Virus record (IMG/VR): IMGVR_UViG_3300042544_003430
DNA: 64,000 nucleotides
Reading direction: 5' to 3' (one strand)
Origin: a virus
Taxonomy: Duplodnaviria; Heunggongvirae; Uroviricota; Caudoviricetes
Made by a program: the position numbers and the translations under genes. Positions 11,644 to 38,149 of the stretch are shown piece after piece (positions within the stretch are counted from its first letter, which is position 1; every line of letters starts with the position of its first letter). The notes under the pieces are model-generated. The model saw nothing but the letters and a program-made list of their open reading frames with translations, did not search any database and was not told where the DNA came from.

Positions 11644-14600
11644 ATGGCTCAAAAGTATTTGAGCAAAGCTTTGGCTTTCGCTTTAACCTTGTTTGCAACA
11701 CAAGGAAATCTTCATGCAGCATGCGGGAATCTCACACCGAGTTTCAGTAATGCATCCAACAAAACCTGTGGTATACCTCAGGTAATTACACTTACCAATA
11801 CTTCCACTGGAAACAGTCGAAATGTAGCCACCTACAAGTGGTATGTGGGTACCACACTGCTGAGCACACAAGTTGGCAAATCCACCCAAAAATACACCAT
11901 CAACACTGCAGGTAGCTATACCTTCAAGTTGGTGGCGATAGATACGGGTAAGGTGGGCTGTAAAGACAGCACAAGCACTACCATTACCATTTCGGCATCT
12001 GTTCCGAGAATTTTGGATGGCAATAGAGTAAATACCTATTCTCCCATTTGGGAAAATTGTATAAGTTCATTGGGGGTTCCTGACACCTTTGGTATAAATA
12101 TCAAACCTCAGGATTCATTGCGAAATTACACCATAGTTTGGGGGGATGGCACCGGTAATTCTACTGGCACTTTACTGCTTAGCAGCCAATCCCTCTACCA
12201 TAAGTATAATTCACTAGGACAATTTACTTTATTAATCATCGGAACAAAGGGAAGTTGCACTGATACCCTTCGAGGTGTGGTGTCGAATGAAAGAAATCCT
12301 GTGGCTGGAATTGTGGGTCCACCAACAGGAACCAATGCAGGTTGTGTGCCCATTCGCATGCGTTTTATCAATAACTCTTCCTTAAGCTCACCTAGCACCA
12401 CTTTTACCTGGGATTTTGGCAATGGCGAAACCATAGTAAGGGGATTCAATACCCACAAAGACACTTTATTTTATACCTATAAGCGCTTTTTGTGTAATGG
12501 CATCGTGAAACTTACTCAAACCAATAATTGTGGTTCGAGTTTTGCCACCTGGAACCCAATCATGGCTTCCTCTAAGGATACTGCCATTATTGCGCCGACC
12601 AATCCGACCAACTGCGATCTTGCTGTACCTTTTACGTTTAACAATACCTCTCAAAATCGTTTTTGTAGCACGCCAAACAATAAGAAATACCTCTGGGTTT
12701 GGGGCGACGGAACCAATTCTGGTTGGAGTACTTCTTCTGCTTCGCAGTCTAAAACCTACAGCAAGCGCGGTGTGTACCAGGTCTTGCTGATTGATTCAAA
12801 TGGCTGCGGTAAAGATACTGCAAGGTATACCTTGCGTATCGATAGCATGCCTACCATTTCTGCAGGCCCAGCGTCGGCTGCAGGATGCTCACCTTTGGTG
12901 GTAAACTTCAGAGACAACAGCATAAATGCAACTTCTAGAAATTGGGATTTTGGATATGCAACACCAACAAGCAGTGCGCAAAACCCAACCCATACCTATC
13001 AAACAGGTGGTACATATAGAGCAGTGCTGACAGTAGCCAACAATTGTGGATCATTAAAAGATACTGTCCTTATTACTGTCAAACAAAAAGTAAAGGCAAA
13101 CTTCAATACACCGCTTACTGGCTGTGCTCCATTAACACAGAAATGGACCAATACATCTGTCAAAGGATTGGCAGGAACCCCTACATATTTCTGGGATTTT
13201 GGGGACGGAACAACTTCTACCCAGGTGAATCCTCCAGATAAAACTTACTCTACGTTAGGGACATATACCATTACACTCATTGCTACAGACTCATGCGGTA
13301 AGGATACCATTAAAAAGACGTTTACCGTCCGTGGTAAGCCCTCTGCTACAATTACTTTGTTATCTTCAAGCCGGTGTGTGGGCAGCACTTTAGATATTCG
13401 CTTTGTAACCTCACCCGTAAATACAGCTTCAGTTATCTGGGGTGATGGAACCAATGGCAGCAGTTATTTCGGATTGGGTGGTTCAGTTGACCGCACGGTT
13501 TCCAGAAAATACGACAGTCTGCGCACCTACAGATTTGGGGTAGTTATGGTGGATCCAAGCGGTTGCCGAGACACCAATTACCTAAACATTGCAATGGATC
13601 CAAGGCCTACGATGAACTATACCTACACCACAACCAATGGTTGTGGTCCTTTGGATGTTACATTTACCAATACCAGTGCGCACAATGGAGGGGGTAACAT
13701 CAACCAAATGAAGTTCTTATGGAACTTTAGTAATGGTATATTGGCTTACAGCAAAGATACTGCAGCTAGGTTCTTGCCGTTTAAAACAAGAGACTCTATT
13801 TATCCCGTTAAATTAATTGGAACAAACGCCTTTGGCTGCAGAGATTCCATTACCAAAACGGTTCGAGTTTATCCAAAACCATTGAGTAAATTTAGTATTA
13901 GTGAAAAGGATGGTTGTGCACCTTTGGATATTACTACTACGAACAATTCTACTCCATATGACACGGGTTCTATAAACATAATGAAGTTTATATGGGACTT
14001 TGGCAACGGCAGGAAAGCGTTTGGTAAAGATACTGCTGCTCGATTCTTAGCCAGTAAAACAAAAGATACTGTGTATACTGTTAGTCTGATATCTATTTCT
14101 GAACATGGTTGCCGAGATACCAGTTCAACCACAGTGCGTATTTATCCAAAACCTAAAGCCTTATTTACCAGAAGTAAAACTGAAGGTTGCAAACCACTCG
14201 GGGTTACCTATGTCAACCAAAGTGTACCCTACGATACCGGCAATATATCAATAATGAGTTTTGCTTGGGATTTAGGAAATAGAATTACCTCATTCGCTAC
14301 AGAACCTGTGGGTATCTATAATGATGCGATAAACAAAGATACTACTTATAAGGTACGTTTGATTGCCACTAGTGAGCACGGATGCAAGGATACTGCAAAT
14401 TCCACTGTACTGTTACATCCGAATCCGGTGATTAAATTTGATATGAGCCGCACCAATGGCTGCGGTCCATTGCCTGTGAGCTTCTCGAACAAGAGCATCA
14501 ACGGCGATGCATTTACTTGGGAGTTTGGCGTATATGGAACTGATACCGCAAAGAGTCCTAGTAAGGTATTCTATGGCCGCGATATTTTTGACTCAGTAGT

Positions 14601-16737
14601 AGTGGTGAAGCTTAGCGCGATGAGCAAATTTGGCTGCTTGAGTGATACGCTAAAAGACGAAGTGACGGTTTTTGGATTACCTATTGCCAACTATCTAGTT
14701 TCAACAGATACCTTCTGTTTCCCTGACCTGACGCAGTTTTTGAACCAAAGTTTGGCTTCCTACAACTACACTTGGGATTTGGGCGATGGCACTGTAACAG
14801 GAACTACAAACCCCAAACATTTCTTCAAGAAAAGCTCAAGTCCATTTAGTGATACTACCTATTTCATCAAACTTGTTGCTACAAGCCCTTACGGATGTAA
14901 GGACACCGCAAACGGCAGTATGACCGTATTGCCTTACCCTATTCCAAAATTCAGTGTTGACAATCCTGCGGGTTGTGCGTCACACACAGTGAAGTTCAAC
15001 AACCAGTCGGTAAACGTGTTGAATTACCTGTGGGTATTTGGAGATGGATATACATCAACCGATGTGAACCCTACCCATACCTTTATAAATACCGGTGCGA
15101 ATGATACGGCGTATCAGGTTGTTCTTTATACCTACTCTTTGGATTGTGTAGACTCTACTAGTATTTGGATACCAGTTTACAAGCCCTCGTATTCATTCTT
15201 CAGAACGGACCGGGTAAATCCATGTGATGCTGGATATTTTAAATTCCAGAGCTTTGGCGAAAATGCGCCAATTGTGAAGTACAATTTTGGTGATGGTAGC
15301 ACATCAACTTTTCCCAACCTAACGCATTTATTCCCAACCTCACCTTACACCGATACAAGCTTCATCGTTACACTATACACCACAAGCAATCGCGGTTGCA
15401 CAGACAGCTTTAAACGCACAGTTACGCTCCCACAGCGACTTTCTATCGGAATGAAAGACACCAGTTATGCGCTATGTGCTCCGACGGTAATTCAGTTTAC
15501 AAACTACACAAGGGGTGCACGCACATATATTTGGGACTTTGGAGATAATGGAGGAAGTTCTCAGAAGAACCCAATTTATGAATACCAAAAACCGGGCTTA
15601 TACGCATATAAGTTGTTTGCCTTTGACGCAAATGGGTGTATTGACAGTCAGGTTTCAAACGGCACTGTTCGTGTGGATGTGAGTCCTAAAGCGGATTTTG
15701 ACTTTAGTCCTGGTAAAGGCCGCATGCCAAATGACAACCGTATTTTCTTTACTGACAAGAGCCGCAGTGTGATACCACTGACCTATTTCTGGGATTTCTC
15801 GGATCCAGCGGGTATACCTGCAACGAGTACGATTCAAAATGCAACCCACGATTTTAGCGACTCTGGAGACTATAAAATCTGTTTGACGGTAGATAATGGG
15901 GGTTGTAAGAATATATTTTGCAATTTTGTACGCATCGATCCGGCATTTCCAACCCCAGATTTCTCGGTGGGTGGGGATTCGGGTTGCCCACCTCTTACCG
16001 TGCAGTTTACCAACCTTTCTGTGAACTCTGACCGCTATATATGGTTCTTTGGTGACGGTGAAAGAAGCGAGGACAAAGACCCAGTCCATACCTATAAGTA
16101 CAGCGGATATTACGACGTGATTTTGATCGCAAAAGGTCCAGGGGGTGAGGGTAAAACGGAGAAGAAGCAGTTCATAAAAGTATTGAATGCACCATTCACG
16201 TATTTCAATCTCACGCCCTCTATATTGTACCTTCCTGATGCCAAATTCACAACTCGAAACCTGACTACTGGAGCTGTAGGATATCAGTGGAATGTGTACA
16301 ACAGCAGCACTAGAAATCGAGTTGGGAATAGCCTTTTGGTGAATCCCTATTTCCAAGTAAACGATACGGGGCATTATGATGTGGAATTGATTTCAGTAAG
16401 CAGTCAGGTCTGTTATGATACCCTATTGTTGCCCAAGCCCATCTACGTGAATCCACGTGGCATATTGCATGTACCGGATGCCTTCACACCTACCAATGAT
16501 GAACGCAACGATGTGTTTAAACCAAGCGCGATAAACGTGCAAAAGGATTTCTATCTCTTCCAGATCTATAACAGATGGGGTGAAATCGTATTCGAAACCA
16601 AAGACCCCGATGAGGGTTGGGACGGCCGTAAAAAGGGCAAAATATGCCAAAGTGGAGTCTATGTATATAAAATCAATGCAAGACTCTTCAGCGGGGATGA
16701 TATTTCAGCGGATGGTGTGGTTCACTTGATTCGATAG
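11644..16737 (+). CDS. giant secreted PKD-repeat protein with Bacteroidota type-IX secretion (gliding-motility) C-terminal domain
   Basis: Signal peptide. Many repeats of the form W(D/V)FGDG..S....P.H.Y...G.Y.V.L (PKD-like). C-terminus VPDAFTPTNDERNDVFKP...YNRWGEIVF...DPDEGWDGRKKG...GVYVYKI resembles the T9SS type-B CTD. Confidence 0.7.
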   Translation: MAQKYLSKALAFALTLFATQGNLHAACGNLTPSFSNASNKTCGIPQVITLTNTSTGNSRNVATYKWYVGTTLLSTQVGKSTQKYTINTAGSYTFKLVAIDTGKVGCKDSTSTTITISASVPRILDGNRVNTYSPIWENCISSLGVPDTFGINIKPQDSLRNYTIVWGDGTGNSTGTLLLSSQSLYHKYNSLGQFTLLIIGTKGSCTDTLRGVVSNERNPVAGIVGPPTGTNAGCVPIRMRFINNSSLSSPSTTFTWDFGNGETIVRGFNTHKDTLFYTYKRFLCNGIVKLTQTNNCGSSFATWNPIMASSKDTAIIAPTNPTNCDLAVPFTFNNTSQNRFCSTPNNKKYLWVWGDGTNSGWSTSSASQSKTYSKRGVYQVLLIDSNGCGKDTARYTLRIDSMPTISAGPASAAGCSPLVVNFRDNSINATSRNWDFGYATPTSSAQNPTHTYQTGGTYRAVLTVANNCGSLKDTVLITVKQKVKANFNTPLTGCAPLTQKWTNTSVKGLAGTPTYFWDFGDGTTSTQVNPPDKTYSTLGTYTITLIATDSCGKDTIKKTFTVRGKPSATITLLSSSRCVGSTLDIRFVTSPVNTASVIWGDGTNGSSYFGLGGSVDRTVSRKYDSLRTYRFGVVMVDPSGCRDTNYLNIAMDPRPTMNYTYTTTNGCGPLDVTFTNTSAHNGGGNINQMKFLWNFSNGILAYSKDTAARFLPFKTRDSIYPVKLIGTNAFGCRDSITKTVRVYPKPLSKFSISEKDGCAPLDITTTNNSTPYDTGSINIMKFIWDFGNGRKAFGKDTAARFLASKTKDTVYTVSLISISEHGCRDTSSTTVRIYPKPKALFTRSKTEGCKPLGVTYVNQSVPYDTGNISIMSFAWDLGNRITSFATEPVGIYNDAINKDTTYKVRLIATSEHGCKDTANSTVLLHPNPVIKFDMSRTNGCGPLPVSFSNKSINGDAFTWEFGVYGTDTAKSPSKVFYGRDIFDSVVVVKLSAMSKFGCLSDTLKDEVTVFGLPIANYLVSTDTFCFPDLTQFLNQSLASYNYTWDLGDGTVTGTTNPKHFFKKSSSPFSDTTYFIKLVATSPYGCKDTANGSMTVLPYPIPKFSVDNPAGCASHTVKFNNQSVNVLNYLWVFGDGYTSTDVNPTHTFINTGANDTAYQVVLYTYSLDCVDSTSIWIPVYKPSYSFFRTDRVNPCDAGYFKFQSFGENAPIVKYNFGDGSTSTFPNLTHLFPTSPYTDTSFIVTLYTTSNRGCTDSFKRTVTLPQRLSIGMKDTSYALCAPTVIQFTNYTRGARTYIWDFGDNGGSSQKNPIYEYQKPGLYAYKLFAFDANGCIDSQVSNGTVRVDVSPKADFDFSPGKGRMPNDNRIFFTDKSRSVIPLTYFWDFSDPAGIPATSTIQNATHDFSDSGDYKICLTVDNGGCKNIFCNFVRIDPAFPTPDFSVGGDSGCPPLTVQFTNLSVNSDRYIWFFGDGERSEDKDPVHTYKYSGYYDVILIAKGPGGEGKTEKKQFIKVLNAPFTYFNLTPSILYLPDAKFTTRNLTTGAVGYQWNVYNSSTRNRVGNSLLVNPYFQVNDTGHYDVELISVSSQVCYDTLLLPKPIYVNPRGILHVPDAFTPTNDERNDVFKPSAINVQKDFYLFQIYNRWGEIVFETKDPDEGWDGRKKGKICQSGVYVYKINARLFSGDDISADGVVHLIR

Positions 16738-16803: not shown

Positions 16804-17154
16804 ATGGCAATAAAATACAAAGAGTTTAAAAAGAAATTACAAAACGAACCCCTAACCGAAGAGGAATTAACCATTATTCAGGAGACAGAAGATTATATTG
16901 ACTCTGAAATTCTAAACCAATTTCCGAAGAGCAATTACGGAGAGGTTCTAATTGATTTGACTTATCCGTCTTTTACCTACTCTCATCAAAGAGGTTCTTT
17001 GATGGACTCAAATTCATATAGAAGATCCTTGATGAGATCCGAATTAGAAAAAAGATACAAATCAGCCGGATGGAAGATAGAGGTTAAATTCGACGATGGA
17101 CTGGATGGACCTAATATGTCCGGTCCAGATTATTGGATATTAAAAGGAAAGTAG
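16804..17154 (+). CDS. hypothetical protein (116 aa)
   Basis: ORF downstream of motif A. Confidence 0.4.
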   Translation: MAIKYKEFKKKLQNEPLTEEELTIIQETEDYIDSEILNQFPKSNYGEVLIDLTYPSFTYSHQRGSLMDSNSYRRSLMRSELEKRYKSAGWKIEVKFDDGLDGPNMSGPDYWILKGK

Positions 17155-17156
17155 GA

Positions 17157-17165
17157 CCGTATATT
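17157..17165 (+). promoter_or_regulatory. motif A upstream of 17181
   Basis: ggaCCGTATATTtataaaaataacaatATG. Its position argues that the Prs-like gene starts at 17181, not 17133. Confidence 0.5.
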
Positions 17166-17180
17166 TATAAAAATAACAAT

Positions 17181-18083
17181 ATGTTACAATTAAATTTAGC
17201 AGACTCAGATAAGTCACAGATCAAATTTAAACCATCTGCATTTCCAGACGGCCAGCAATCAATCACTTTAGCTCTGTCCACAATCTCAGATCTAGAAATA
17301 TCTTGCACAATCAAGTCCAGATTAAATTCTTTCAGGGATTTAGAACTCATAGTCTGCGCAGCAGCTGCATTGAGAGAAGCTGGAATGGAAAGAATTCACC
17401 TTTATATTCCATACTGTCTAGGCGGAAGATCTGACATCAAATTTGAAGAAGGTGGCTTAAACTACATCAAGAGTGTAATTGCACCTATCATCAATTTACA
17501 AAAATTTACTTCTGTTACCGTCATGGATGCTCACTCGATAGCTCTAGAAAATTGCATTGATAATTTGAAAAAGCTAGACAATTCTTATCTTGCAAAATGG
17601 GCAATCAAGGATCTATCTTCAGAAGGAGGAGATTTCAAATTGGTCTCTCCTGATGCTGGAGCACTAAAGAAAATATTCTCAACAGCTAAATCTATCGGAT
17701 ATAAAGGAGAAATAATAGTTGCTGAAAAAGTTAGAGATTTATCTACCGGAAAAATTATTCACACCAAGGTACCTATAAACGTTTATGATGCAGATAAAGA
17801 TTTTATCATTATAGATGATATCTGTGACGGTGGGAGAACATTCATAGAAATCGCCAAGGCTATAGAAGAAATGAGATCTTTAAGTTCAGTGGTTCATCCA
17901 GATAAGCACGGAAAAAATTACCTTATCGTAACTCACGGCATCTTCAGCGCAGGATTTGAAGAACTTAGTAAATATTTTGATAGAATTTATACCACCAATT
18001 CTATCTCCGAAATAAACGAGTCTGAAAATTACAAAGGTGCTGAATTTGATAAACAATTTGTTAAACAACTAAACGTATTCTAA
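17181..18083 (+). CDS. ribose-phosphate pyrophosphokinase (PRPP synthetase) family protein
   Basis: PRPP-binding loop IIIDDICDGGRTF, overall Prs-like layout. Start trimmed to the ATG after motif A. Confidence 0.6.
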   Translation: MLQLNLADSDKSQIKFKPSAFPDGQQSITLALSTISDLEISCTIKSRLNSFRDLELIVCAAAALREAGMERIHLYIPYCLGGRSDIKFEEGGLNYIKSVIAPIINLQKFTSVTVMDAHSIALENCIDNLKKLDNSYLAKWAIKDLSSEGGDFKLVSPDAGALKKIFSTAKSIGYKGEIIVAEKVRDLSTGKIIHTKVPINVYDADKDFIIIDDICDGGRTFIEIAKAIEEMRSLSSVVHPDKHGKNYLIVTHGIFSAGFEELSKYFDRIYTTNSISEINESENYKGAEFDKQFVKQLNVF

Positions 18084-18084
18084 A

Positions 18085-18558
18085 ATGAAAGAAACACTAG
18101 AATTGAGAATGTATGGATTAGTTCCATATAACTTAAGCCCCATCCAGCAAGGGATCCAATTTGGACACGCAGTTGTTGAGTATGGGTTAACCCATTTCGG
18201 AGAAAAAAATTACCGGGATTGGGCTAACAATCATAAGACCTTTATCATTCTCAATGGAGGGACTACTAATAATTCCATAGATAAAGAAACAGGAAATCCA
18301 AAAGGAACTTTAAATCAGCATGCGGTAAACCTTAGAGATATGGGGATTCCTTTTTGCACCTTTTATGAGCCTGACTTAGGGGATCAATTAACAGCAGTAG
18401 TTTTTCTAGTAGACGAACATGTCTTCAACAGAGAAAAATATCCGGATCCAAGAGATCCATTTAATCAGGATTGGGCTTGGTCTGAGCATCTTAGCACAGA
18501 AGAACTTTCTAGAGTTTTGCAAATGAGAGACTTTTTAAAACAATTTAGATTAGCATAA
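18085..18558 (+). CDS. PTH2-family (peptidyl-tRNA hydrolase 2-like) protein
   Basis: Q.GIQFGHAVVEYG ... W...K.FIIL ... GIPF..F.EPDLG..TAVVF follows the PTH2 pattern and resembles the 30204 gene. Confidence 0.4.
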   Translation: MKETLELRMYGLVPYNLSPIQQGIQFGHAVVEYGLTHFGEKNYRDWANNHKTFIILNGGTTNNSIDKETGNPKGTLNQHAVNLRDMGIPFCTFYEPDLGDQLTAVVFLVDEHVFNREKYPDPRDPFNQDWAWSEHLSTEELSRVLQMRDFLKQFRLA

Positions 18559-19079
18559 TGGAATCATACTCAGAAATAGAAGGAGATTTAATCTCATTAG
18601 CAAAGCAAGGTAAATTTGAAGTTATCACCCATGGATGTAATTGCAGATCCCAAATGGGAGCAGGGATTGCACCACAAATGGCAAAAGCATTTGGATGCGA
18701 TAAATTCGAAATGGAAACTTGGGGTCCAACTATCGAAAAATTAGGCTGCATAGATTATGAAACTGTAGTTCTAGGAGAAAATGCAATCTGGAGTCTTCTG
18801 GATGCTAAAAATAACCGAAACGAACCTGAATTGGCCGTTGTTAATTCTTACACCCAAAACTACTACGGAAAGAATCACTCAGATGGGGTTTCCAAACCTT
18901 TAGACTACGAGGCTTTAACCCTTTGCATGAGGAAGATCAATTCTACCTTTAGAGGCAAACACATAGGAATGCCAAAAATAGGAGCAGGATTAGCTGGAGG
19001 AGATTGGAACAGAATAAAAAAAATCATACAGACCGAATTAAAAGACTGTAAAGTAACTATAGTAATATACAACAAATAA
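18558..19079 (+). CDS. macro domain protein, Poa1p-like (ADP-ribose-1''-phosphate phosphatase family)
   Basis: ITHGCNCRSQMGAGIAPQMAKAF matches the Poa1p-type motif HSCNC..WGGGIAYQ. Confidence 0.55.
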   Translation: MESYSEIEGDLISLAKQGKFEVITHGCNCRSQMGAGIAPQMAKAFGCDKFEMETWGPTIEKLGCIDYETVVLGENAIWSLLDAKNNRNEPELAVVNSYTQNYYGKNHSDGVSKPLDYEALTLCMRKINSTFRGKHIGMPKIGAGLAGGDWNRIKKIIQTELKDCKVTIVIYNK

Positions 19080-19099
19080 ATTAAATAAAATAAAATATC

Positions 19100-19459
19100 A
19101 TGGACAATCAAATTGATGAAATGACCGGAACCTTGGAAGAAATGAAAGGTGCATTCGTAGGCTCTTTAGTGCGTAACAACAAAAAGATCCGCGAAGACAG
19201 AGCAATCGCAATCGCAGAAGCTGCTCAAATGCTCTACAAAAGAAAAGTTGAGGACACAGAATTAGCTATTAAACAGCTAAAAAGAGAAAGAGAATCTATG
19301 TTAGACCTTAGTCCAACAACAGCAGATTCTTTGGTAATGGCTTCAGATTTTGACGCAGAAGCTTTCATCCAAAAGGATGTAGAGATCGGTCTCAAAATTA
19401 GAAATTTAGAGATCACTCTAGAAATTGCAAGAACTCGTTACAACCACTTATTTGAATAA
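19100..19459 (+). CDS. hypothetical coiled-coil protein
   Basis: Heptad-rich 119-aa ORF. Confidence 0.35.
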   Translation: MDNQIDEMTGTLEEMKGAFVGSLVRNNKKIREDRAIAIAEAAQMLYKRKVEDTELAIKQLKRERESMLDLSPTTADSLVMASDFDAEAFIQKDVEIGLKIRNLEITLEIARTRYNHLFE

Positions 19460-19464
19460 TCCGT

Positions 19465-20346
19465 ATGGGAAATTCAAGTTATTCTACCTATAATAGATCC
19501 ATCAGATCCGAATCTTTTGGCTATCATAGCAAATCAAGAAACGAGATCTTTACCCAAAGTAAAGAGGGTAAAGCTCACGAGCAAATGAGACCTAAAGGAA
19601 TCGTCTACAGAGAATGTAGAGATTCCGAGGCTCACCCGAATGCTACCCCGATTCAGCTTTATTTGGACGTTACCGGAAGCATGGGACATATTCCCCACGA
19701 AATGATTAAAGACGGTTTACCAACTTTAATGGGGAATCTAATTCAAAGAGGTGTAGAGGATGCTTCCCTTATGTTTGGAGCTATCGGTGACCACGAATGT
19801 GACAAATCACCTCTCCAAGTTGGACAGTTTGAATCTGGTGACGAAGAATTGGACATGTGGCTTACCAGAACCTGGCTCGAAGGCGGAGGTGGTGGAAACG
19901 GCGGAGAAAGCTATCCATTAGCTTGGTATTTCGCAGGAAATCACGTTGCAACAGATGCTTGGGAGAAGAGAAACCAAAAAGGATTCGTATTCACTATCGG
20001 TGATGAGCCTTTCCTTAATTCTCTACCAATGTCTGCAGTAAAGGAAATCATGGGGGATTCAGCATCAGGCCAATCTACTTGGGATGCTACAGTTCTTCTA
20101 GAACAAGCTCAAAAGACAAATCACGTTTTCCATATCTTCTTAGAACATGGTTACAGAAAAGTTGATTCGGCTTGGAAAGAATTAATGGGAGATCACCTTA
20201 TAGTTGCAAAAGACTATAAAGATATCCCGAAAATTATCTCAGAAACAATTTTAACTATTCAAGGGGAAAGAAAACCTTCTGAGAATGCGACCGTATATTC
20301 TAGTAATACTACAGATGAAAAAGACTCTGTAGATATTATCCTATAA
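19465..20346 (+). CDS. von Willebrand factor A (vWA) domain protein
   Basis: MIDAS-like LYLDVTGSMG motif. Confidence 0.5.
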   Translation: MGNSSYSTYNRSIRSESFGYHSKSRNEIFTQSKEGKAHEQMRPKGIVYRECRDSEAHPNATPIQLYLDVTGSMGHIPHEMIKDGLPTLMGNLIQRGVEDASLMFGAIGDHECDKSPLQVGQFESGDEELDMWLTRTWLEGGGGGNGGESYPLAWYFAGNHVATDAWEKRNQKGFVFTIGDEPFLNSLPMSAVKEIMGDSASGQSTWDATVLLEQAQKTNHVFHIFLEHGYRKVDSAWKELMGDHLIVAKDYKDIPKIISETILTIQGERKPSENATVYSSNTTDEKDSVDIIL

Positions 20347-21404
20347 TGAATACGAGCAAAATAGTAATTGGACTAAACTACGGAGACGAAGGAAAGGGGT
20401 TAACCACCTCTTTCCTCTGTTCCCAATCTAAAAATCCCATCGTTGTTAGATTCAACGGGGGTCACCAAGCAGGTCACACAGTATCCTTCAAAGGAAAAAG
20501 ACATGTGTTTTCTAGCTTTGGATCAGGAACACTTCAAAAAGTTCCAACGTACTGGAGCAAATATTGCACATTCTCTCCGACAGCATTTCTAAATGAATTA
20601 AAATTTCTACTGGATAAATCTTTAAAATTCCCAGGATTTTATCTTGATCCTTTATGTCCAATCACAACACCTTACGATTTATACAGCAACCGAAAAGATT
20701 CCCAGAATGTGAGTCATGGAACAGTCGGGGTAGGATTTGGATCAACTCTTAAAAGACACGAAAACTTTTATAAGCTTTATGCACAGGATATGTTCTATCC
20801 AGAAGTCTTCAAAGCAAAATTAGAAAACATTGCTAAGTATTACGGAATGGAGGATCTCGAAATCGATAACTTTTTAGAAGACGTAACAATTGTAACTACT
20901 ATAGTTCAATTGACAAATGAAAAAGTTCTTTTAAATTATTCAGATGCTATATTTGAAGGGGCTCAAGGGGTTCTTTTAGATATGGATTTTGGATTTTTTC
21001 CAAACGTTACCAGATCTAATACAACATCTAAAAATGCACTGGAAATTTCTCCTCTGCATTCAAACGAAATCTACTACATCACAAGATCTTATTTAACTAG
21101 ACACGGAGCTGGATTTCTTCCAGGAGAAAAAGAACTTCCCCTAATTAATAATGAATTGGAGACAAACGTCTCTCATGAATACCAAGGAAATTTTAGAACA
21201 GCAGATTTAGATTTGGATCTTCTAAACTATTCTTTAAAATGTGACTCTCATTTTTCTGAGGGTCAAACCAAAAATCTAGTAATTACCTGCATGGATCAAT
21301 ATCCAATAGATGTAGAAAAATTGCTAGAAAAATTAGAAATTAAATTCAATAAAGTGTTCGTCTCTTACGGGGATTCACTTGATAAAATACAACAATTAAA
21401 ATGA
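20346..21404 (+). CDS. adenylosuccinate synthetase family protein, short form (PurA/PurZ-like)
   Basis: GDEGKGL, GGHQAGHT, FEGAQGVLLDMDFGFFPNVTRSNTT and LTRHGAGFLPGE match PurA P-loop and switch motifs. Only 352 aa. Confidence 0.75.
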   Translation: MNTSKIVIGLNYGDEGKGLTTSFLCSQSKNPIVVRFNGGHQAGHTVSFKGKRHVFSSFGSGTLQKVPTYWSKYCTFSPTAFLNELKFLLDKSLKFPGFYLDPLCPITTPYDLYSNRKDSQNVSHGTVGVGFGSTLKRHENFYKLYAQDMFYPEVFKAKLENIAKYYGMEDLEIDNFLEDVTIVTTIVQLTNEKVLLNYSDAIFEGAQGVLLDMDFGFFPNVTRSNTTSKNALEISPLHSNEIYYITRSYLTRHGAGFLPGEKELPLINNELETNVSHEYQGNFRTADLDLDLLNYSLKCDSHFSEGQTKNLVITCMDQYPIDVEKLLEKLEIKFNKVFVSYGDSLDKIQQLK

Positions 21405-21874
21405 AAATAACAGAAAAATATGTCTTCTTTTGGAACGGGATTTATTCTCAGTGGCACAAAGCAAAAATGACAATCGACGGTGTTGAGTATAGCTCTTGTG
21501 AGCAATATATGATGCATCAAAAAGCTATCGTCTTCAGCGACTTTTATATTGCATCTCAGATACTTCTGACAGAGAATCCGAAAGAGCAAAAAGCACTCGG
21601 AAGACAAATTCAAGGGTTTGATAAAAACATTTGGGATTCGGTTTGCTTGAGCATAGTCTATAAAGGAAATCTAGCTAAATTTTCTCAAAATGAGGATCTA
21701 AAATCAGATCTTCTTTCCACCGAGAATAGAATCCTGGTAGAAGCTTCACCCTTGGATCAAATTTGGGGAATTGGAATGGCAGAGGATCATCCAAATATAG
21801 AATCTCCAGAACACTGGAGGGGACTGAACTTGCTTGGATGGGCGTTAAACTTAGTAAAAAAAGAATTAAATTAA
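21401..21874 (+). CDS. NADAR / YbiA (DUF1768) domain protein
   Basis: FFWNG.YSQWH...EYSSCEQYMMHQKA...ALGRQIQGFD...W...VYKGNLAKFSQN..L...LL.T....LVEASPLDQIWGIG is the YbiA/NADAR signature. Confidence 0.75.
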   Translation: MKITEKYVFFWNGIYSQWHKAKMTIDGVEYSSCEQYMMHQKAIVFSDFYIASQILLTENPKEQKALGRQIQGFDKNIWDSVCLSIVYKGNLAKFSQNEDLKSDLLSTENRILVEASPLDQIWGIGMAEDHPNIESPEHWRGLNLLGWALNLVKKELN

Positions 21875-22114
21875 ATGAAAAGTACAGAATTTGCATATTG
21901 GTTACAAGGGTTCTTCGAACTTAGCGAAACTAACACCTTGTCGGAAAGACAGGTCGAAACTATTAAAAATCATTTGAAGCTGGTTTTCTATCATGAGATA
22001 GATCCTTCCTATTCTACAGATCCTGTAGTACAGGAAACCATGCAAAAAATTCACGACGGAGAACCTCAAAAGAGAACTCCGAGAAATTCTAACCCAAGAA
22101 CTATAAAATGTTAA
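21875..22114 (+). CDS. small hypothetical protein, tandem paralog A
   Basis: Shares the YWLQGFFEL...Q...IK..L...F pattern with the next ORF. Confidence 0.35.
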   Translation: MKSTEFAYWLQGFFELSETNTLSERQVETIKNHLKLVFYHEIDPSYSTDPVVQETMQKIHDGEPQKRTPRNSNPRTIKC

Positions 22115-22377
22115 CCATGGAAGAAACAAGAAATTTTGTTATCTGGCTTGATGGATTTCTAGAAGCTTGCGGGCCAACTCCAACTAAGGAGCAGGTCGAA
22201 AAAATAAAATCCAGGCTGAATGGAATTTTTGAGCATGTTGCAGAAATCCCAGCTAAGGAGAACGAAAAACCGTCTCTAGAGGAATTAGGACAAGAACATG
22301 GATTTAATGTATATCCCGGATTTCCTGGATCAGGATTTCCTTTTAGAGATGAAGGTGGTGGTTTATTAAGATGCTAA
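22108..22377 (+). CDS. small hypothetical protein, tandem paralog B
   Basis: VIWLDGFLEAC...EQVEKIKSRLNGIF. Confidence 0.35.
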   Translation: MLTMEETRNFVIWLDGFLEACGPTPTKEQVEKIKSRLNGIFEHVAEIPAKENEKPSLEELGQEHGFNVYPGFPGSGFPFRDEGGGLLRC

Positions 22378-22722
22378 ATGAGTAGAGTAATTTATATAGC
22401 TTCTCCTTATTCTAATCCCGACCCTGATGTTACCGAGGAGAACTTTAAAAAAGTCTCGAGGCTTGCGGCTAAGCTTTGCTCAGAGGGTCAGGTTGCAATT
22501 TCCCCTATTACTTATGGTCACACGCTGGTTGGATTTAAACCAATGCCAATTGACTGGCCATTCTGGGAGAATTTTTGTCTTTCCATTCTCCAGGCTTGTG
22601 ACGAAATCATAGTTTATAAAATGGAAGGTTGGGATAGATCGAGAGGTGTTGCAGAAGAGGTCGAATTTGCCAGAAGAAAAGGAATCCAGATCACGTATAT
22701 GGAATATGATCCTTCTATCTAA
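22378..22722 (+). CDS. nucleoside 2-deoxyribosyltransferase-like (DUF4406/Rcl-fold) protein
   Basis: VIYIASPYS N-terminal motif typical of the family. Confidence 0.4.
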   Translation: MSRVIYIASPYSNPDPDVTEENFKKVSRLAAKLCSEGQVAISPITYGHTLVGFKPMPIDWPFWENFCLSILQACDEIIVYKMEGWDRSRGVAEEVEFARRKGIQITYMEYDPSI

Positions 22723-22731
22723 CCGTATATT
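22723..22731 (+). promoter_or_regulatory. motif A upstream of 22748
   Basis: taaCCGTATATTtaaataaaatacctttATG. Confidence 0.5.
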
Positions 22732-22747
22732 TAAATAAAATACCTTT

Positions 22748-23191
22748 ATGGAATTAAGAGAATATTTCGAAACAAATCCGGACTCTATCCCTTATCTAGA
22801 AAGACTAGAAAGTGAATGGGAACAGTATGGAAAGATAATCATCGGATGTGATTATGACGACACAATTTCCCCATGGAAGATGGAGAATTTTAATCCAGAA
22901 AGGGTTCTAGAAGTTCTAAAGGTTGCTAGAGAAACCGGAGCTTACATCGTAATCTTTACTTCTTGTGACAAAGCAAGATATCCAGAAATCGAAGACTATT
23001 GTAAAAGCATTGGCCTCACAATCGACTCGATCAATAAAAATCCAATCGACTTACCTTACGGTAAAAAAGGTAAAATCTATGCCAACATTTTCCTGGATGA
23101 CAGAGGTGGAATGAATGAATCCCTAAACATTCTAGAAATGGCAACGTATAGAATTAGAGGAAAAAGAAGAGTTTTAGGAATCAACGTATAA
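22748..23191 (+). CDS. HAD-superfamily hydrolase-like protein
   Basis: IIIGCDYDDTIS (DxDxT motif I). Confidence 0.4.
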   Translation: MELREYFETNPDSIPYLERLESEWEQYGKIIIGCDYDDTISPWKMENFNPERVLEVLKVARETGAYIVIFTSCDKARYPEIEDYCKSIGLTIDSINKNPIDLPYGKKGKIYANIFLDDRGGMNESLNILEMATYRIRGKRRVLGINV

Positions 23192-23199
23192 TTAAGAAA

Positions 23200-23364
23200 A
23201 TGAAAATGAACCCAAAAGAAAAAGAATTGGAAAATATCCAATCCCAACAAAACCCTTCAAAAGAGGTTAATCCAACCGAGTCTGTAATAATAAAACAGAT
23301 CGAGGATGATTTTGAATATCAAGAATATTATTCAGAAAATTCTCCTAATTTCGACGTAGATTAA
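23200..23364 (+). CDS. small acidic ORF (54 aa), not in the ORF track
   Basis: ATG at 23200 and TAA at 23362 in a 210-bp gap. Protein-like composition. Confidence 0.25.
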   Translation: MKMNPKEKELENIQSQQNPSKEVNPTESVIIKQIEDDFEYQEYYSENSPNFDVD

Positions 23365-23373
23365 TCAGGAGGA

Positions 23374-23382
23374 CCGTATATT
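23374..23382 (+). promoter_or_regulatory. motif A upstream of 23402
   Basis: ggaCCGTATATTcaataaaataataaatattATG. Confidence 0.5.
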
Positions 23383-23401
23383 CAATAAAATAATAAATAT
23401 T

Positions 23402-24931
23402 ATGTTTAAATGTAATTCACTATTCTACACAGACGGCTACAAAATTGGCCACAAAAGAATGCTAGCACCAGGAACAACTCGTTTATACGGAACCTGGATT
23501 CCACGAAGTATTAAACACGCTCCAAAAGGAGTTAAAAAAATCGTATCGTTTGGCCAGCAACTAGCTGTTAAATGGTTACACGATGAATTCGAAGAAAATT
23601 TCTTCAAGCTTCCTTTAGAAGAAGCAATGGAATTCGGAAATGATATGGCAATGTATCTCGGCCTCGAGTATGATGCTTCTCATTTCGAAGCTCTCCACAA
23701 ATTAGGTTACTTGCCTATCAAAGTTAAATCTTTACCAGAAGGTATCGAAACTCTTCCAAATGTTCCACACATGACCTTCATTAATACCGTGGATGGATTT
23801 GCTTGGTTAACCCTTTATTTGGAAACCATCATCTCTTCATTAGCTTGGAAGCCTTCAACATCAGCTACAATCGCTTTACAGTACAAAAGAAACCTGATCG
23901 AATGGGTAAGAAAAACAGACCCTAAAAACATCTGGTTAGTTCCTTTCCTAGCTCACGACTTCTCGGCTAGAGGTTTGTCTCCTTGGGACATGTTAGCAAG
24001 CGGTTTAGGACACGCTACATCATTCAGAGGTTCAGACACAATAGTTTGTATCCCAGCAGCTCGATACTTCTACAACGAGCCTAAAAACGAGGTCTGCATC
24101 AATTCTGTAAACGCTTCAGAACACTCAGTATCTACCACCAAAATTTTCACAGTCGGCGAACAACAAATGATAGCAGACTGGTTAAGAGAATTCGACAAAG
24201 GTATCCTTTCAATCGTTTCAGACACATTCGATTTATGGACACTAATCACCAAATATTTACCTGCCAACAAAGAGGCTATCATGGCCAGAGACGGTAAATT
24301 GGTTATCAGACCTGACTCAGGAGACCCAGTAGATATTATTTGCGGATTAGAAAATAAAGTTCTTGAGGAAGGAGTGGGATATAAAGAAGAATACAAAGAA
24401 AGCCCAGAATACAAAGGAGTTATCGAATTACTTTGGGACATCTTCGGAGGTACAATCAACGAAGAAGGTTACAAAGTACTTGATCCTCACATCGGAGCAA
24501 TCTACGGGGACTCTATTACCTTGGACAGACAAATCCAAATCTACGAAAGATTAGCAGCTAAAGGATTTGCAACTACCAATATCGTTTTAGGTATCGGTTC
24601 TTACACCTACCAAATGAACACCAGAGACACCTTAGGCTTCGCAGCTAAAGGAGCATGGTTCGAAGTAGAAGAAAACGGTACTAAAGTAGGCTACGACATC
24701 TACAAAGATCCTATCACAGACGATGGAACTAAGAAATCCTTAAAAGGACTTATTAGAGTCGATGAAGTTTCAGTAACTTCCGAGGAAACTGGAATTACTT
24801 ATACTAAGTATGAAGTAAAAACCCAATGTACCCCAGAACAAGAAGAAGGAGGCATCTTACAAACCATCTACGAAAATGGTAAATTCTACAATCAAACTAC
24901 ATTAACTGAAGTTAGATCAAAATTAAACTAA
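23402..24931 (+). CDS. nicotinamide phosphoribosyltransferase (NAMPT/NadV) family protein
   Basis: FYTDGYKIGHKRM, SFRGSDT and VIRPDSGDP match NAMPT signature regions. 509 aa. Confidence 0.85.
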   Translation: MFKCNSLFYTDGYKIGHKRMLAPGTTRLYGTWIPRSIKHAPKGVKKIVSFGQQLAVKWLHDEFEENFFKLPLEEAMEFGNDMAMYLGLEYDASHFEALHKLGYLPIKVKSLPEGIETLPNVPHMTFINTVDGFAWLTLYLETIISSLAWKPSTSATIALQYKRNLIEWVRKTDPKNIWLVPFLAHDFSARGLSPWDMLASGLGHATSFRGSDTIVCIPAARYFYNEPKNEVCINSVNASEHSVSTTKIFTVGEQQMIADWLREFDKGILSIVSDTFDLWTLITKYLPANKEAIMARDGKLVIRPDSGDPVDIICGLENKVLEEGVGYKEEYKESPEYKGVIELLWDIFGGTINEEGYKVLDPHIGAIYGDSITLDRQIQIYERLAAKGFATTNIVLGIGSYTYQMNTRDTLGFAAKGAWFEVEENGTKVGYDIYKDPITDDGTKKSLKGLIRVDEVSVTSEETGITYTKYEVKTQCTPEQEEGGILQTIYENGKFYNQTTLTEVRSKLN

Positions 24932-25006: not shown

Positions 25007-26929
25007 ATGACAATCCAATTAGCTTTAAGCTACGCATGGGTATTAATCCCGCTCCTAGCAATTGTGTTTTACAAATTCACATTGCGAGTATTCTTCGGTA
25101 TGATCATCATCCCGGAAGACAAAATCGGTCTAGTTACAAAGAAATTCGTTCTCTTTGGTTCTAATAGATCTCTACCAGACGGTAAAATTATCGCACTTAA
25201 TGGAGAAGCAGGTTTCCAAGCAGATCCATTAGCTCCTGGTTTGTATTGGTTCTACTGGGTATGGCAGTATTCTGTCGATGAAGCTTCATTAACCGTTATC
25301 CCACAAGGAAAAATTGGTCTATTATCAGCTAAAGACGGTAATCCACTTCCAACCGGTTCGATTTTAGCCCGTCACGTAGAATGTGATAATTATCAGGATA
25401 CCAGATCTTTCTTAACACAAGGTGGACAAAGAGGTAAACAGGTAGGTTATCTTAACAACGGTGTATATCGTATTAACACTTTCTTATTTGACATCTCAGT
25501 TACTGAAATCACTTATATCGAAGATGGAATGGTAGGTGTAGTAACAGCTTTAGATGGTATTCCACTAGGTCCAGGTAGCATTGCAGGTAACCAAATCGAA
25601 GGTCACAACAACTTCCAGGACTTTGATAAATTCTTAGGAGCCGGCGGTCAAAGGGGTTTACAGACTCAAGTTATCCAGGCAGGTTCTTACTCACTTAACC
25701 CTTGGGCAGTAGAGATTGAGAAAAAAGAAATGACTCAAATTCCTATCGGTCACGTTGGGGTAGTAATCTCATTCGTTGGAGAAGAAGGAGTAGACACAAG
25801 TGGAGAGACCTTCAAACATGGTAATATCGTTAAGAAGGGTCAAAGAGGGGTATGGGCAACACCATTAGATCCAGGTAAATACGCAATCAACCCTTACACT
25901 CAAAAAATCGAGATCGTACCAACCACTAACTTGGTTCTTAACTGGGCAAATGCTCGTAACGAATCTCACAATCTGGACAAGAACTTAAGTACAATTACAG
26001 TTCGTTCCAAAGACGGTTTTCCATTCAATATCGATGTATCTCAGATCATCCACATACCAGCAAATGAAGCACCCAAGGTAATCGCAAGATTTGGATCAAT
26101 GGCTAACCTAGTATCTCAGGTTCTAGAACCAACGATCGGTAACTACTTCCGTAACTCTGCACAAGACTCAGATGTTATTGCTTTCTTGGCAACTCGTCAG
26201 CAACGTCAAAATGCGGCCAAAGACAATATTTCTAAAGTATTGGATGAATACAACGTTCATGCAGTAGATACACTAATTGGGGATATCGTTCCCCCTGAAT
26301 CTCTAATGAAAACCCTAACCGATCGTAAGATTGCACAGGAAGAAGAGATAACATTCGAAACTCAACGTAAAGCCCAAGACCAACGTAAGACTTTACAGTC
26401 AGCTAAAGCTCTAGCAGATATGCAAGGAGAGATGGTAAAAGCACAACAGTCAGTTGAAATTGCACAACGTGAAGCAGAAGCAGCAGTTAAGAAATCTGAA
26501 GGATCTGCTAAAGCGTTAGAATTAACCGCTGGTGGTAACGCTAAAGCTCTAGAATTAAAAGCTAATGCAGAAGCTAAAGCTAAGAAAGTAATGGCAGAAG
26601 CAGAAGCCCAACAAATCAAATTGACCGGTGAAGCTCAAGCTTTATCTATCGAGGCAATTGGTAAATCAACAGCCGAGTCTTACAGATTACAAGTAGAAGC
26701 AATGGGAGGCGACAACTTTGCTAACTTCAAAATCACTGAAGCAATCGGAGAAAACAAAATCAAAATTATCCCTGAATTCCTAATCGTAGGAGGTAACGGA
26801 GAAGCTAACCCAATGTCAGGACTATTAGGCCTTGAATTACTTAAAAAGTTCCAAGGTAAAGACCAAGACAATTCGGTTAAAACGATCGAGGTTAAATCAG
26901 AGGTTAAAGAAGAACCTAAAAAGAAATAA
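25007..26929 (+). CDS. SPFH/band-7 (flotillin-like) membrane protein
   Basis: N-terminal TM helix and a long Ala/Glu/Lys-rich coiled-coil tail, as in flotillins. Confidence 0.45.
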   Translation: MTIQLALSYAWVLIPLLAIVFYKFTLRVFFGMIIIPEDKIGLVTKKFVLFGSNRSLPDGKIIALNGEAGFQADPLAPGLYWFYWVWQYSVDEASLTVIPQGKIGLLSAKDGNPLPTGSILARHVECDNYQDTRSFLTQGGQRGKQVGYLNNGVYRINTFLFDISVTEITYIEDGMVGVVTALDGIPLGPGSIAGNQIEGHNNFQDFDKFLGAGGQRGLQTQVIQAGSYSLNPWAVEIEKKEMTQIPIGHVGVVISFVGEEGVDTSGETFKHGNIVKKGQRGVWATPLDPGKYAINPYTQKIEIVPTTNLVLNWANARNESHNLDKNLSTITVRSKDGFPFNIDVSQIIHIPANEAPKVIARFGSMANLVSQVLEPTIGNYFRNSAQDSDVIAFLATRQQRQNAAKDNISKVLDEYNVHAVDTLIGDIVPPESLMKTLTDRKIAQEEEITFETQRKAQDQRKTLQSAKALADMQGEMVKAQQSVEIAQREAEAAVKKSEGSAKALELTAGGNAKALELKANAEAKAKKVMAEAEAQQIKLTGEAQALSIEAIGKSTAESYRLQVEAMGGDNFANFKITEAIGENKIKIIPEFLIVGGNGEANPMSGLLGLELLKKFQGKDQDNSVKTIEVKSEVKEEPKKK

Positions 26930-27033: not shown

Positions 27034-27513
27034 ATGGCAAAAGTAATCAAACCAACAGACTCAGATCAAGAAGTAGAATTTTATCCGGCAGTATTTTTAG
27101 CAGGATCCATCGAAATGGGAAAAGCTGAAGACTGGCAAAAAACAGTTGAGAAAGAATTAGAAAAATTAGACGTTACAATTTTTAATCCTAGAAGAGATGA
27201 CTGGGATAGCTCATGGACTCAAGAGCAATCTAATCCACAATTTAATCATCAGGTTAATTGGGAGTTGAACAAATTGGAAAGATGTGATGCCATCTTCATG
27301 TACTTCTCTCCAGAAACACAATCTCCAATATCTCTACTAGAACTAGGAAGATATTCCACATACGGAAAAATGATTGTTTGTTGTCCTAAAGGATTCTGGA
27401 GAAAAGGAAACGTAGATATCCTTTGCACCAGAGAAAATATTCCAGTATTTGAGGATCTACAATCTGCTATCGGGGCTTTGAAAACTAGAATCAACCAACA
27501 AATAATAGATTAA
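27034..27513 (+). CDS. Rcl/DNPH1-like 2'-deoxynucleoside 5'-phosphate N-hydrolase / nucleoside 2-deoxyribosyltransferase family protein
   Basis: VFLAGSIEMG and LLELGRYS motifs typical of the family. Confidence 0.55.
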   Translation: MAKVIKPTDSDQEVEFYPAVFLAGSIEMGKAEDWQKTVEKELEKLDVTIFNPRRDDWDSSWTQEQSNPQFNHQVNWELNKLERCDAIFMYFSPETQSPISLLELGRYSTYGKMIVCCPKGFWRKGNVDILCTRENIPVFEDLQSAIGALKTRINQQIID

Positions 27514-28041: not shown

Positions 28042-28773
28042 ATGTTTAAATTTTATGAAGTTGGAGGAAAAATAAGAGACGAAATTTTAGAATTATCTTC
28101 TAAAGATGTTGATTATGTAGCAGTTCCGAAAGAAGAATTACTAGATACAGTTGAGAAGGCAGAAGATATGTTCAGCATGTTAGAATCTTTTCTAAGAGTA
28201 GAAAAATTTGAGATCTTCTTGGTAACCCCAGACTGTTTTACAATTAGAGCAAAATTCCCAGCAGGACACAAATACTCAGGGGTTGCAGACTTTGTAATGG
28301 CCAGAAAGGAAATTGGTTATATTCCAGGAACTAGAACCCCAATTGTTAAGCCGGGAACCCTATTTGACGATCTTCAGAGAAGAGATTTTACCCTAAACGC
28401 TTTAGCAAAAGACGAGGACGGAACCATAATCGATTTCTTTGGAGGAATAGAGGATCTAAAGAAAAACCGTTTAAAAACTCCACTAGACTGCAAAATAACT
28501 TTTGATGACGATCCGCTTAGAATTCTTAGGGCCATCAGATTTTGTATAACTAAAGGGTTTTGGATTGGACCCTATATGGACGGGGTAATTCAGGATTACG
28601 ACTACGAAGGAAAAATGGGGGTAGTTTCTATGGAGAGAATAAGAGAAGAATTGTTCAAATGTTTCAAACACGATACATTAAAAACCCTCAAAACACTTCA
28701 CGAATACCCAGCCCTAAGAAACTACATTTTTGAAAAAAATACACTTTGGTTAAAACCCACAATGGAGCAATAA
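28042..28773 (+). CDS. tRNA nucleotidyltransferase (CCA-adding)/poly(A) polymerase head-domain protein, minimal form
   Basis: YEVGGKIRDEILE...KDVDYVAV (Pol-beta NTase head) and the hallmark RRDFTLNAL motif. Only 243 aa. Confidence 0.65.
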   Translation: MFKFYEVGGKIRDEILELSSKDVDYVAVPKEELLDTVEKAEDMFSMLESFLRVEKFEIFLVTPDCFTIRAKFPAGHKYSGVADFVMARKEIGYIPGTRTPIVKPGTLFDDLQRRDFTLNALAKDEDGTIIDFFGGIEDLKKNRLKTPLDCKITFDDDPLRILRAIRFCITKGFWIGPYMDGVIQDYDYEGKMGVVSMERIREELFKCFKHDTLKTLKTLHEYPALRNYIFEKNTLWLKPTMEQ

Positions 28774-28778
28774 AATAT

Positions 28779-38139: not shown

Positions 38140-38149
38140 TAGCTAGAAA

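Follow-up and report, generated by a model that had tools for sequence, protein, structure and literature searches.

Adenylosuccinate synthetase PurA (EC 6.3.4.4; E. coli enzyme, PDB 1ADE/1CG0) and the phage enzymes PurZ and PurZ0 (phiVC8, S-2L, and Gordonia phage Archimedes) are the described systems closest to a gene in the virus sequence IMGVR_UViG_3300042544_003430 (Caudoviricetes), of which a stretch of 64,000 nucleotides, called the window below, was analysed. The gene (20346..21404, + strand, ATG start) encodes a 352-aa ligase of the PurA (adenylosuccinate-synthetase-like) superfamily, PF00709, referred to here as the PurA-like protein, and it lies directly downstream of a gene for a vWA protein with a MIDAS-type motif. 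A previous large survey of phage PurA homologues showed that all 147 phage PurZ/PurZ0 sequences (100%) have Ser where PurA has Asp13, a residue kept in 99% of the canonical PurA clade in its tree; the non-PurZ phage homologues served just as outgroup (PMC12884076). With E. coli PurA, the PurA-like protein shares the common fold, the Pfam family, the GDEGKG motif, the catalytic residues, and the FEGAQG...VT.SNTT block; unlike it, the PurA-like protein is 80 residues shorter, has its aspartate loop replaced, and is almost always paired with a vWA gene. PurZ and PurZ0 are likewise phage-borne, short, of similar length, and filed under the same database label, but they carry Ser for Asp13, an FGS[TE]xKG P-loop, and ATP-stacking residues, and their genes adjoin datZ (HD_3), mazZ/DUF550, and a PolA-type dpoZ, or else dutZ/dmtZ, usually within ~3 kb. 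The evidence is, in our judgement, about evenly balanced on the view that the PurA-like protein represents a distinct, uncharacterised clade of the PurA superfamily, neither PurZ nor housekeeping PurA, which works with the upstream vWA/MIDAS protein.

An earlier note on this DNA, made from the sequence alone, had assigned the gene to the PurA family, and this assignment is correct. Pfam Adenylsucc_synt (PF00709) matches the protein with 142 bits against a cutoff of 27 (E 2.3e-41) over profile positions 1-313 of 416, and E. coli PurA is its best solved relative in a PDB sequence search (E ~1e-28); both matches are far beyond chance. The open reading frame (ORF) at 20346-21404 and every motif quoted in that note are present in the 352-aa translation, including YGDEGKG (residues 12-18), GGHQAGHT (38-45), TRHGAGF (251-257), and the FEGAQG...VT.SNTT block, which reads FEGAQGVLLDMDFGFFPNVTRSNTT (residues 203-227). 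The gene is conserved: two metagenomic homologues are 97% and 89% identical to the protein, and the latter (L004) is encoded on a 400-kb contig that has the gene order of the window and a T4-type Gp23 capsid gene. Near-identical DNA was not found in GenBank phages by megablast with either the PurA-like gene or window positions 1-25000. At E<=1e-30, a phmmer search with the protein retrieved 2,439 cluster representatives (clusters at 50% identity), a set not limited to the clade coupled to the vWA gene.

Judged by its sequence, the PurA-like protein is not a standard PurA. Its scores against the NCBIfam PurA equivalog models amount to a third or less of every cutoff (NF002223, 128 against 402 bits; TIGR00184, 119 against 395.55 bits; the archaeal short form NF003295, 84 against 368 bits); hhalign aligns the family profile to canonical PurA with a probability of 100% and E 1e-47 over residues 1-302. 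With E. coli PurA numbering and 202 family members in the alignment, the catalytic and IMP-binding residues are kept almost throughout: Asp13, Lys16, and His41 in 201 members each, Arg143 in 200, Gln224 in 202, and Thr239 and Arg272 in 201 each. Several other positions carry family-specific changes, which are N38 to Q (198), T129 to V or C (197), S240 to R (186), V273 to His (202), and also R131 to V or M; in the window protein, the family residues are Q41, V127, H253, and Y279-Q280-G281-N-F283-R284. The phosphate-binding corner of the protein reads as altered in the alignment.

In the aspartate loop, GATTGRRRR of canonical PurA has become [YH]QGxFR in the family. Alignments by MAFFT and hhalign agree that T300 is replaced by Y (Y279), T301 by an invariant Q (Q280), and R305 by F (F283), and that R303 is deleted. 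Since TTGRRRR is replaced by YQG-NFR in the window protein, both Arg303 and Arg305 are lost. T300, T301, and R305 are residues that we take to form the aspartate-binding loop in E. coli PurA structures, and R303 contacts both aspartate and the IMP 2'-OH (PMC8342488). In the guanine-specificity region, the MAFFT alignment sets TKLD against TCMD (Asp kept in 197/202, Lys changed to Cys in 183) and STGP against SYGD, all of it beyond the confident hhalign region. The C-terminal third of the protein is not confidently alignable by hhalign, so the GTP specificity of the enzyme is uncertain. In a rough neighbour-joining tree with PurZ/PurZ0 as outgroup and archaeal PurA not included, six canonical PurA sequences group together at bootstrap 81, and the window protein and its relatives from phages and bacteria make up a third group at bootstrap 68. 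The earlier note had named a firm place within PurA, with the IMP signature intact, as the outcome contrary to its own proposal of a PurZ-type enzyme; this outcome was found in part, because most IMP and catalytic residues are kept, whereas the aspartate loop is lost and the protein lies outside the canonical PurA group.

That proposal, in which the gene would be a PurZ-type candidate of a phage with 2-aminoadenine (Z) DNA, does not hold; the fallback given in the note, some other nucleotide-diverting activity, may be right. As PurZ references, S-2L and phiVC8 were taken from their genomes and Archimedes PurZ0 (residues 5-292) from a PDB alignment. The Asp13 column holds Ser in phiVC8, S-2L, and Archimedes, and Asp in the window protein (GDEGKG) and in 201/202 relatives. 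The NCBIfam PurZ model NF038379 (amino_Aden_PurZ) gives 40.4 bits against a cutoff of 300 and covers only residues 5-61, PurZ structures are lacking among the PDB sequence matches of the protein, and tblastn against the window finds E. coli PurA at 4e-32, phiVC8 PurZ at 4e-4, and S-2L PurZ without a match. The tree places the protein outside the PurZ/PurZ0 group. With the DatZ, MazZ, DpoZ, and PrimPol proteins of S-2L and phiVC8 as queries, tblastn returned nothing below E 0.1 in the window, and phmmer found no match to DatZ, MazZ, DpoZ, or PrimPol within 6-8 kb on either side of 160 related loci, in searches that did not use Dut-like or DmtZ-like reference sequences. The HD protein thought to be DatZ-like (6954-7481, + strand, 175 aa; PHROG 990 'metal-dependent phosphohydrolase') has no similarity to either DatZ; it resembles the Rel/SpoT (p)ppGpp-hydrolase domain and the small alarmone hydrolases Mesh1 and Lmo0812 instead (E 1.7e-5 to 4e-5), and is possibly a phage alarmone hydrolase. 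All four tests for PurZ that rest on sequence failed, and on these alignments and profiles the PurA-like protein is not PurZ or PurZ0.

Three tightly packed genes make up a cassette that ends with the PurA-like gene. The first gene (19100..19459, + strand) encodes a 119-aa protein, cc119, whose charged, heptad-like sequence appears coiled-coil-like by eye and which has no Pfam, PHROG, or PADLOC match; a homologue stands at the same position in 34/80 viral loci and in the gene trio of a Bacteroidota metagenome-assembled genome (MAG; L005 8769-9128). The second (19465..20346, + strand) encodes the vWA/MIDAS partner of 293 aa, which belongs to PHROG 2971 and has no Pfam match. The stop codon of cc119 lies 5 nt before the vWA start, the vWA stop overlaps the start of the PurA-like gene (TAATG), and a further overlap (ATGA) joins the PurA-like stop to the start of a NADAR gene. 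A scan for sigma-70 promoters and terminators around the cassette gave chance-level results. PADLOC gives no model match for the cc119, vWA, or PurA-like proteins, so the cassette is not a listed defence system.

The vWA partner of the window carries a MIDAS-type motif (D68-x-T70-G-S72 with D180) and a GGGGG loop. Over 138 partner sequences, the D-x-T-G-S motif, D109, G-D180-E, and the GGGGG loop are invariant or nearly so, and the N-terminus is near-invariant as well, MG-x-[GST]-x-[WYF]-[SD], with Gly2 found in 137/138 partners; the motif stands at the first start codon every time, and its residue 6 is aromatic and its residue 7 S or D. In the AlphaFold prediction, computed with a multiple sequence alignment, the partner is a genuine vWA fold with its invariant MIDAS-type motif, and the N-terminal segment is modelled, at moderate confidence, as partly helical and packed on the domain. 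The partner family comprises 4096 clusters at 90% identity, of which 0 are annotated.

The two genes travel together widely. We surveyed 80 viral loci from IMG/VR and 80 bacterial loci from GTDB genomes, and found the vWA gene directly upstream on the same strand in 77/80 viral loci, two of the three exceptions beginning at a contig end, and directly upstream in 66/80 bacterial loci, among them Actinomycetes, Chloroflexota, Myxococcota, Planctomycetota, Verrucomicrobiota, and Pseudomonadota. The partner also occurs in 220 GenBank phage records, from the same taxa as the best PurA-like matches; carriers include Mycobacterium phages of the genus Bixzunavirus, Rhizobium RHph phages (Kleczkowskaviridae), and the Vibrio phiKT1024/Va1 group, and the partner is annotated as hypothetical or, in some cluster C phage records, as 'HNH endonuclease'. 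The conserved pair spans large phages whose hosts belong to at least four phyla, and bacteria of many phyla. In a Bdellovibrionales MAG (CAYTAW010000032; L110 6444-9314), a single 956-aa ORF fuses the vWA partner to the PurA-like protein, which is possibly an assembly or frameshift artefact; a beta-rich segment is inserted in the vWA part of this fusion, and the same insertion is found in the vWA proteins of loci L127 and L152. As a separate observation, the partner of Mycobacterium phage Alice, gp247 (L007 3930-5714), has 594 aa, against a contiguous match of ~270 aa in other cluster C phages, and the similarity breaks after '...KGY|CNTPDAPVWMADGSF'; it appears that some cluster C phages carry an intein or a homing endonuclease inserted here.

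Further genes join the pair in many loci. The vWA gene has a protein-kinase-like gene just upstream in 54 loci of bacteria and 17 of viruses, with Pfam Pkinase matches of E 1.6e-13 in L127 and 1.7e-9 in gp246 of Mycobacterium phage Alice. In the viral and bacterial locus tables, cc119 matches and detected kinase-like genes never occur in the same locus. An NrtR-type regulator, which has NUDIX and NrtR_WHD domains, stands at the head of the operon in ~36 actinomycete loci. Neither a kinase-like nor an NrtR-like gene is present in the window.

In the window, the cassette lies inside an NAD+/ADP-ribose island on the + strand (17133-24931), which runs in the order Prs/Adps-like, hydrolase, Macro, cassette, NADAR, DUF1937, and NAMPT. 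The Prs/Adps-like phosphoribosyl-pyrophosphokinase (17133-18083, + strand) matches PHROG 619 at E 3.9e-59 and Pfam Pribosyltran weakly; it is followed by the hydrolase (18085-18558, + strand; PHROG 3668) and by the Macro-domain protein (18558-19079, + strand), which has a PHROG 335 match, a weak Pfam Macro match, and a DarG-like macro match in PADLOC. Behind the cassette lie the NADAR-domain gene (21401..21874, + strand; Pfam NADAR E 4.7e-50), a DUF1937 gene resembling nucleoside 2-deoxyribosyltransferases (NDT; 22378-22722), and a gene of the nicotinamide phosphoribosyltransferase family, NadV/Namat-like (23402..24931, + strand; NAPRTase E 6.8e-31, PHROG 448 E 1.9e-157). The calls that the earlier note had made for other genes of the window are right in part: the two genes that it described as Rcl/DNPH1-like are DUF1937/NDT-like (22378-22722) and Nuc_deoxyri_tr2 (27034-27513), its MetF is MTHFR (33173-34132), and its DatZ-like HD protein falls away. 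The arrangement of the PurA-like and NADAR genes is kept in the 89%-identical relative; the NADAR gene is context and not a conserved member of the cassette. In 7/80 viral loci, a NAMPT homologue is found no more than 6 kb from the PurA-like gene, and in Rhizobium phage RHph_Y65 a phosphoribosyltransferase-like gene and an annotated NMN adenylyltransferase/NUDIX gene stand just upstream. The island could be an NAD+ reconstitution set of the NARP1 or NARP2 type; an NMN adenylyltransferase was not identified among the window ORFs scanned.

Taken as a composite, the reading that we favour, and hold with middling confidence, is that the module performs a partner-dependent, GTP-driven amination of a 6-oxopurine nucleotide with a non-canonical amine, in the adenine-nucleotide or NAD+/ADP-ribose economy. 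Because the P-loop, the catalytic residues, and the FEGAQG block are kept, the phosphoryl-activation chemistry on the 6-oxopurine nucleotide is probably the same as in PurA. In the first half-reaction, which we infer to be kept because Asp13, Lys16, His41, Gln224, Thr239, and Arg143 are intact, a hypoxanthine-type nucleotide would receive a phosphate from GTP on its 6-oxo group. This phosphate would then be displaced by an amine, either one that is not aspartate or aspartate in a different binding mode. The vWA partner would act as an obligatory subunit, be it as regulator, substrate carrier, or substrate, and the adjacent kinase-like protein may control it in many bacteria and some phages, with NrtR control in bacteria. 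Going by the gene context, the module would serve the adenine-nucleotide or NAD+/ADP-ribose economy in phage-host conflict and not DNA base replacement.

Several points weigh against this amination reading. The proposed substrate, amine donor, and nucleotide donor are all read from alignments, and the use of GTP is not secure, as the TKLD/TCMD comparison falls outside the confident hhalign region. Near the former aspartate site, R284, Gln280, Asn274, and His253 might still bind aspartate, and in PurZ enzymes the loop is likewise divergent, yet aspartate is still used. The split between the families has a bootstrap of just 68, in a tree that does not include archaeal PurA. Just 2/80 viral loci have a NADAR neighbour within 6 kb, and just 2/80 a Macro neighbour; the NAD link of the module is recurrent but not obligatory. 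Finally, close relatives with 43-44% identity lack the vWA gene in Chitinophaga agrisoli (L091 3847-9170) and Pedobacter psychrodurus (L143 6428-9194); because these are two Bacteroidota chromosomes without it, the vWA partner is not absolutely required.

In the vWA-less loci, a 127/128-aa ORF is followed by the C-terminal half of a PfkB kinase fused to an NDT-like domain and then by the PurA-like gene, and the group of Chitinophaga adjoins a GmrSD type IV restriction enzyme. This arrangement suggests that the vWA-less variants form a small nucleoside/nucleotide pathway in a defence-island-like setting. A vWA-like N-terminal motif was considered for the 127/128-aa ORFs (MGGGGGRSY...), and was rejected, as the motif hidden Markov model scored no better than 400 shuffled controls.

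The alternative that survives best, which we regard as possible but rather unlikely, is an ordinary, divergent short adenylosuccinate synthetase, which would convert IMP, L-Asp, and GTP to adenylosuccinate as the product of an auxiliary metabolic gene raising AMP/ATP, for instance for the neighbouring NAD+ rebuilding, with the vWA protein merely a regulator. All phosphoryl-transfer residues and most IMP contacts are conserved, as this explanation expects, E. coli PurA is the best solved match, with the hhalign probability of 100%, and database sources name the gene 'adenylosuccinate synthase'; the Prs-like and NAMPT-like neighbours consume ATP or phosphoribosyl pyrophosphate. It has to face the loss of T300, T301, R303, and R305 together with the family-wide changes of T129, N38, and V273, and also the low equivalog scores given above. 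Dedicated kinase-vWA operons, headed by NrtR in actinomycetes, would be unexpected for a presumed housekeeping duplicate; for the near-obligate pairing with a MIDAS protein and the one fusion to it, we know of no precedent in PurA.

A narrower case of the amination reading, unlikely in our view, takes the module as counter-defence against deaminase immunity of the RADAR or Kongming kind, in which IMP, dIMP, or inosine-containing derivatives of NAD or ADP-ribose that host adenosine deaminases produce would be re-aminated or drained by it. In Kongming, the signal is reportedly dITP and the effector an NADase. The position of the gene among those for NAD+ reconstitution and ADP-ribose processing is in keeping with such a role, and the change of S240 to R and the loss of the T129 hydroxyl could, speculatively, fit a substrate larger than a monophosphate. 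Base-modified-nucleotide immune signalling exists as such and is set off by nucleotide kinases of phages, according to a preprint (bioRxiv 10.1101/2024.12.20.629578). Against this stands the frequency of the module in bacterial chromosomes, which would agree no less well with a cellular function; besides, no PADLOC model covers it, and it is absent from the anti-defence literature that was found.

Highly doubtful is a protein-directed ligase, in which the alpha-amine that Gly2 of the vWA partner exposes once Met is removed would take the place of aspartate, so that a purine nucleotide becomes linked to the protein via C6-N. The product, which we rate as a long shot, would be an N6-(protein-glycyl)-adenylate, used in phage-host conflict and placed under kinase control in the bacterial versions; if true, it would be a new kind of protein nucleotidylation. 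The idea draws on the nearly invariant Gly2 at the first start codon with its aromatic residue 6 and S/D 7, on the loss of the aspartate-recognition residues from the enzyme, and on the two genes being adjacent or fused; as glycine has no side chain, the PurA-type contacts to a beta-carboxylate would not be needed. It is pure inference all the same, and to our knowledge a C6-N linkage of a purine nucleotide onto proteins has no precedent. The N-terminus of the partner is modelled, at moderate confidence, as packed on its domain, and relatives without the vWA partner exist, whose small neighbouring ORFs resemble the N-terminal motif no better than shuffled controls do. The last alternative, a PurZ/PurZ0-type enzyme making the 2-aminoadenine precursor from dGMP in a Z-DNA phage, may appeal to a short phage-encoded PurA homologue, to relatives that PHROG 1211 and RefSeq name as they name phiVC8 PurZ, and to NDT-fold genes close by as in PurZ0 phages, but it is already contradicted by the sequence comparisons described above (Asp13, NF038379 and tblastn scores, missing partner genes, the alarmone-hydrolase-like HD protein, and the tree) and is almost certainly wrong.

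Several other features of the window were recorded. The 1697-aa protein at 11644-16737 (+ strand) has at least eight PKD repeats and a C-terminal CHU_C sorting domain of type IX secretion, which suggests that the phage borrows the host signal of this secretion system for a surface or adhesin protein; by this CHU_C domain, the window points to a large uncultured phage of Bacteroidota. Another vWA system, unrelated to the first, is encoded by three consecutive genes on the - strand (36159-39703), which specify a MoxR-type AAA_5 ATPase (38150-39703), a putative metallopeptidase of the DUF2201_N type that has a KOW motif (37114-38139), and a vWA-like DUF2201 protein (36159-37121). The region 28042-30049 (+ strand) has an RNA-repair flavour: it encodes the head of a CCA-adding-type nucleotidyltransferase (PolyA_pol), an exonuclease resembling RNase_T, and a HAD domain of the HAD_SAK_2 'Swiss Army Knife RNA repair' kind; elsewhere, Pnk is encoded upstream of the PurA-like module in Mycobacterium phage Alice, and downstream of it in Vibrio phage phiKT1024 come an exonuclease and a TROVE protein. 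An N6/N4 DNA methylase-like gene (32145-33086, + strand) is followed by a full-length MTHFR ending at 34132 (E 1.2e-65), which is unusual in a phage. A 640-aa SPFH/Band-7 protein (25007-26929, + strand) is encoded also beside the NAMPT gene of the related 400-kb contig, and a 709-aa Lon-like ATP-dependent protease (44795-46924, + strand) matches PHROG 4871 at E 1.9e-239. A search for paralogues among the ORFs arrayed at 50-63 kb returned a single weak pair, and tRNAs were not found in the window.

We define the vWA-coupled PurA-like module as PHROG 1211 together with PHROG 2971, and the window carries both the partner gene and the family residues. The name of phiVC8 PurZ, '2-aminooxy adenylosuccinate synthetase', has been given to this Asp13-retaining clade in PHROG 1211 and in GenBank/RefSeq records such as NC_028986 (gp249) and NC_070967 (gp019), likely as an annotation carry-over, and is no evidence for Z-DNA. 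Because PHROGs and RefSeq hand this product name to the clade, more than 200 phage records with the gene pair could be mistaken for Z-DNA candidates and mislead surveys of Z-genomes; Asp or Ser at position 13, combined with the vWA neighbour, separates the clade from PurZ cleanly. What emerges is a two-gene module, in which a PurA-fold ligase with a remodelled putative acceptor site is joined by a MIDAS protein with a near-invariant N-terminal glycine. Its recurrent NAD+/ADP-ribose linkage suggests that the NAD-centred arms race includes a purine-nucleotide step not recognised so far.

Our literature searches found no study of the vWA-coupled PurA-like clade or of any combination of vWA and PurA fold. 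With regard to NARP1 (Adps and Namat) and NARP2 (Nampt and Nmnat), the PurA-like gene encodes none of their enzymes and just neighbours the Prs-like and NAMPT-family genes. ToyG of toyocamycin biosynthesis is said to be a PurA paralogue that acts on a non-canonical purine and reportedly uses aspartate with a PurB-like lyase; lyase or deazapurine genes of that kind were not seen near the PurA-like gene of the window. By its description, ToyG offers a precedent for the PurA fold being recruited to aminate other 6-oxopurine-like nucleotides. Modules built on vWA proteins are reportedly known as the TerY-P triad (vWA, Ser/Thr kinase, and PP2C) and as MoxR-vWA pairs, as attributed to Anantharaman, Iyer & Aravind 2012 and Kaur et al. 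2020. No PP2C phosphatase was seen among the neighbours that we scanned. As in those modules, a MIDAS-type vWA gene lies beside a gene for a P-loop NTP-using protein and, in bacteria, beside a protein-kinase-like gene; the NTP-using partner here, in contrast, is a PurA-fold ligase and not an AAA+ ATPase.

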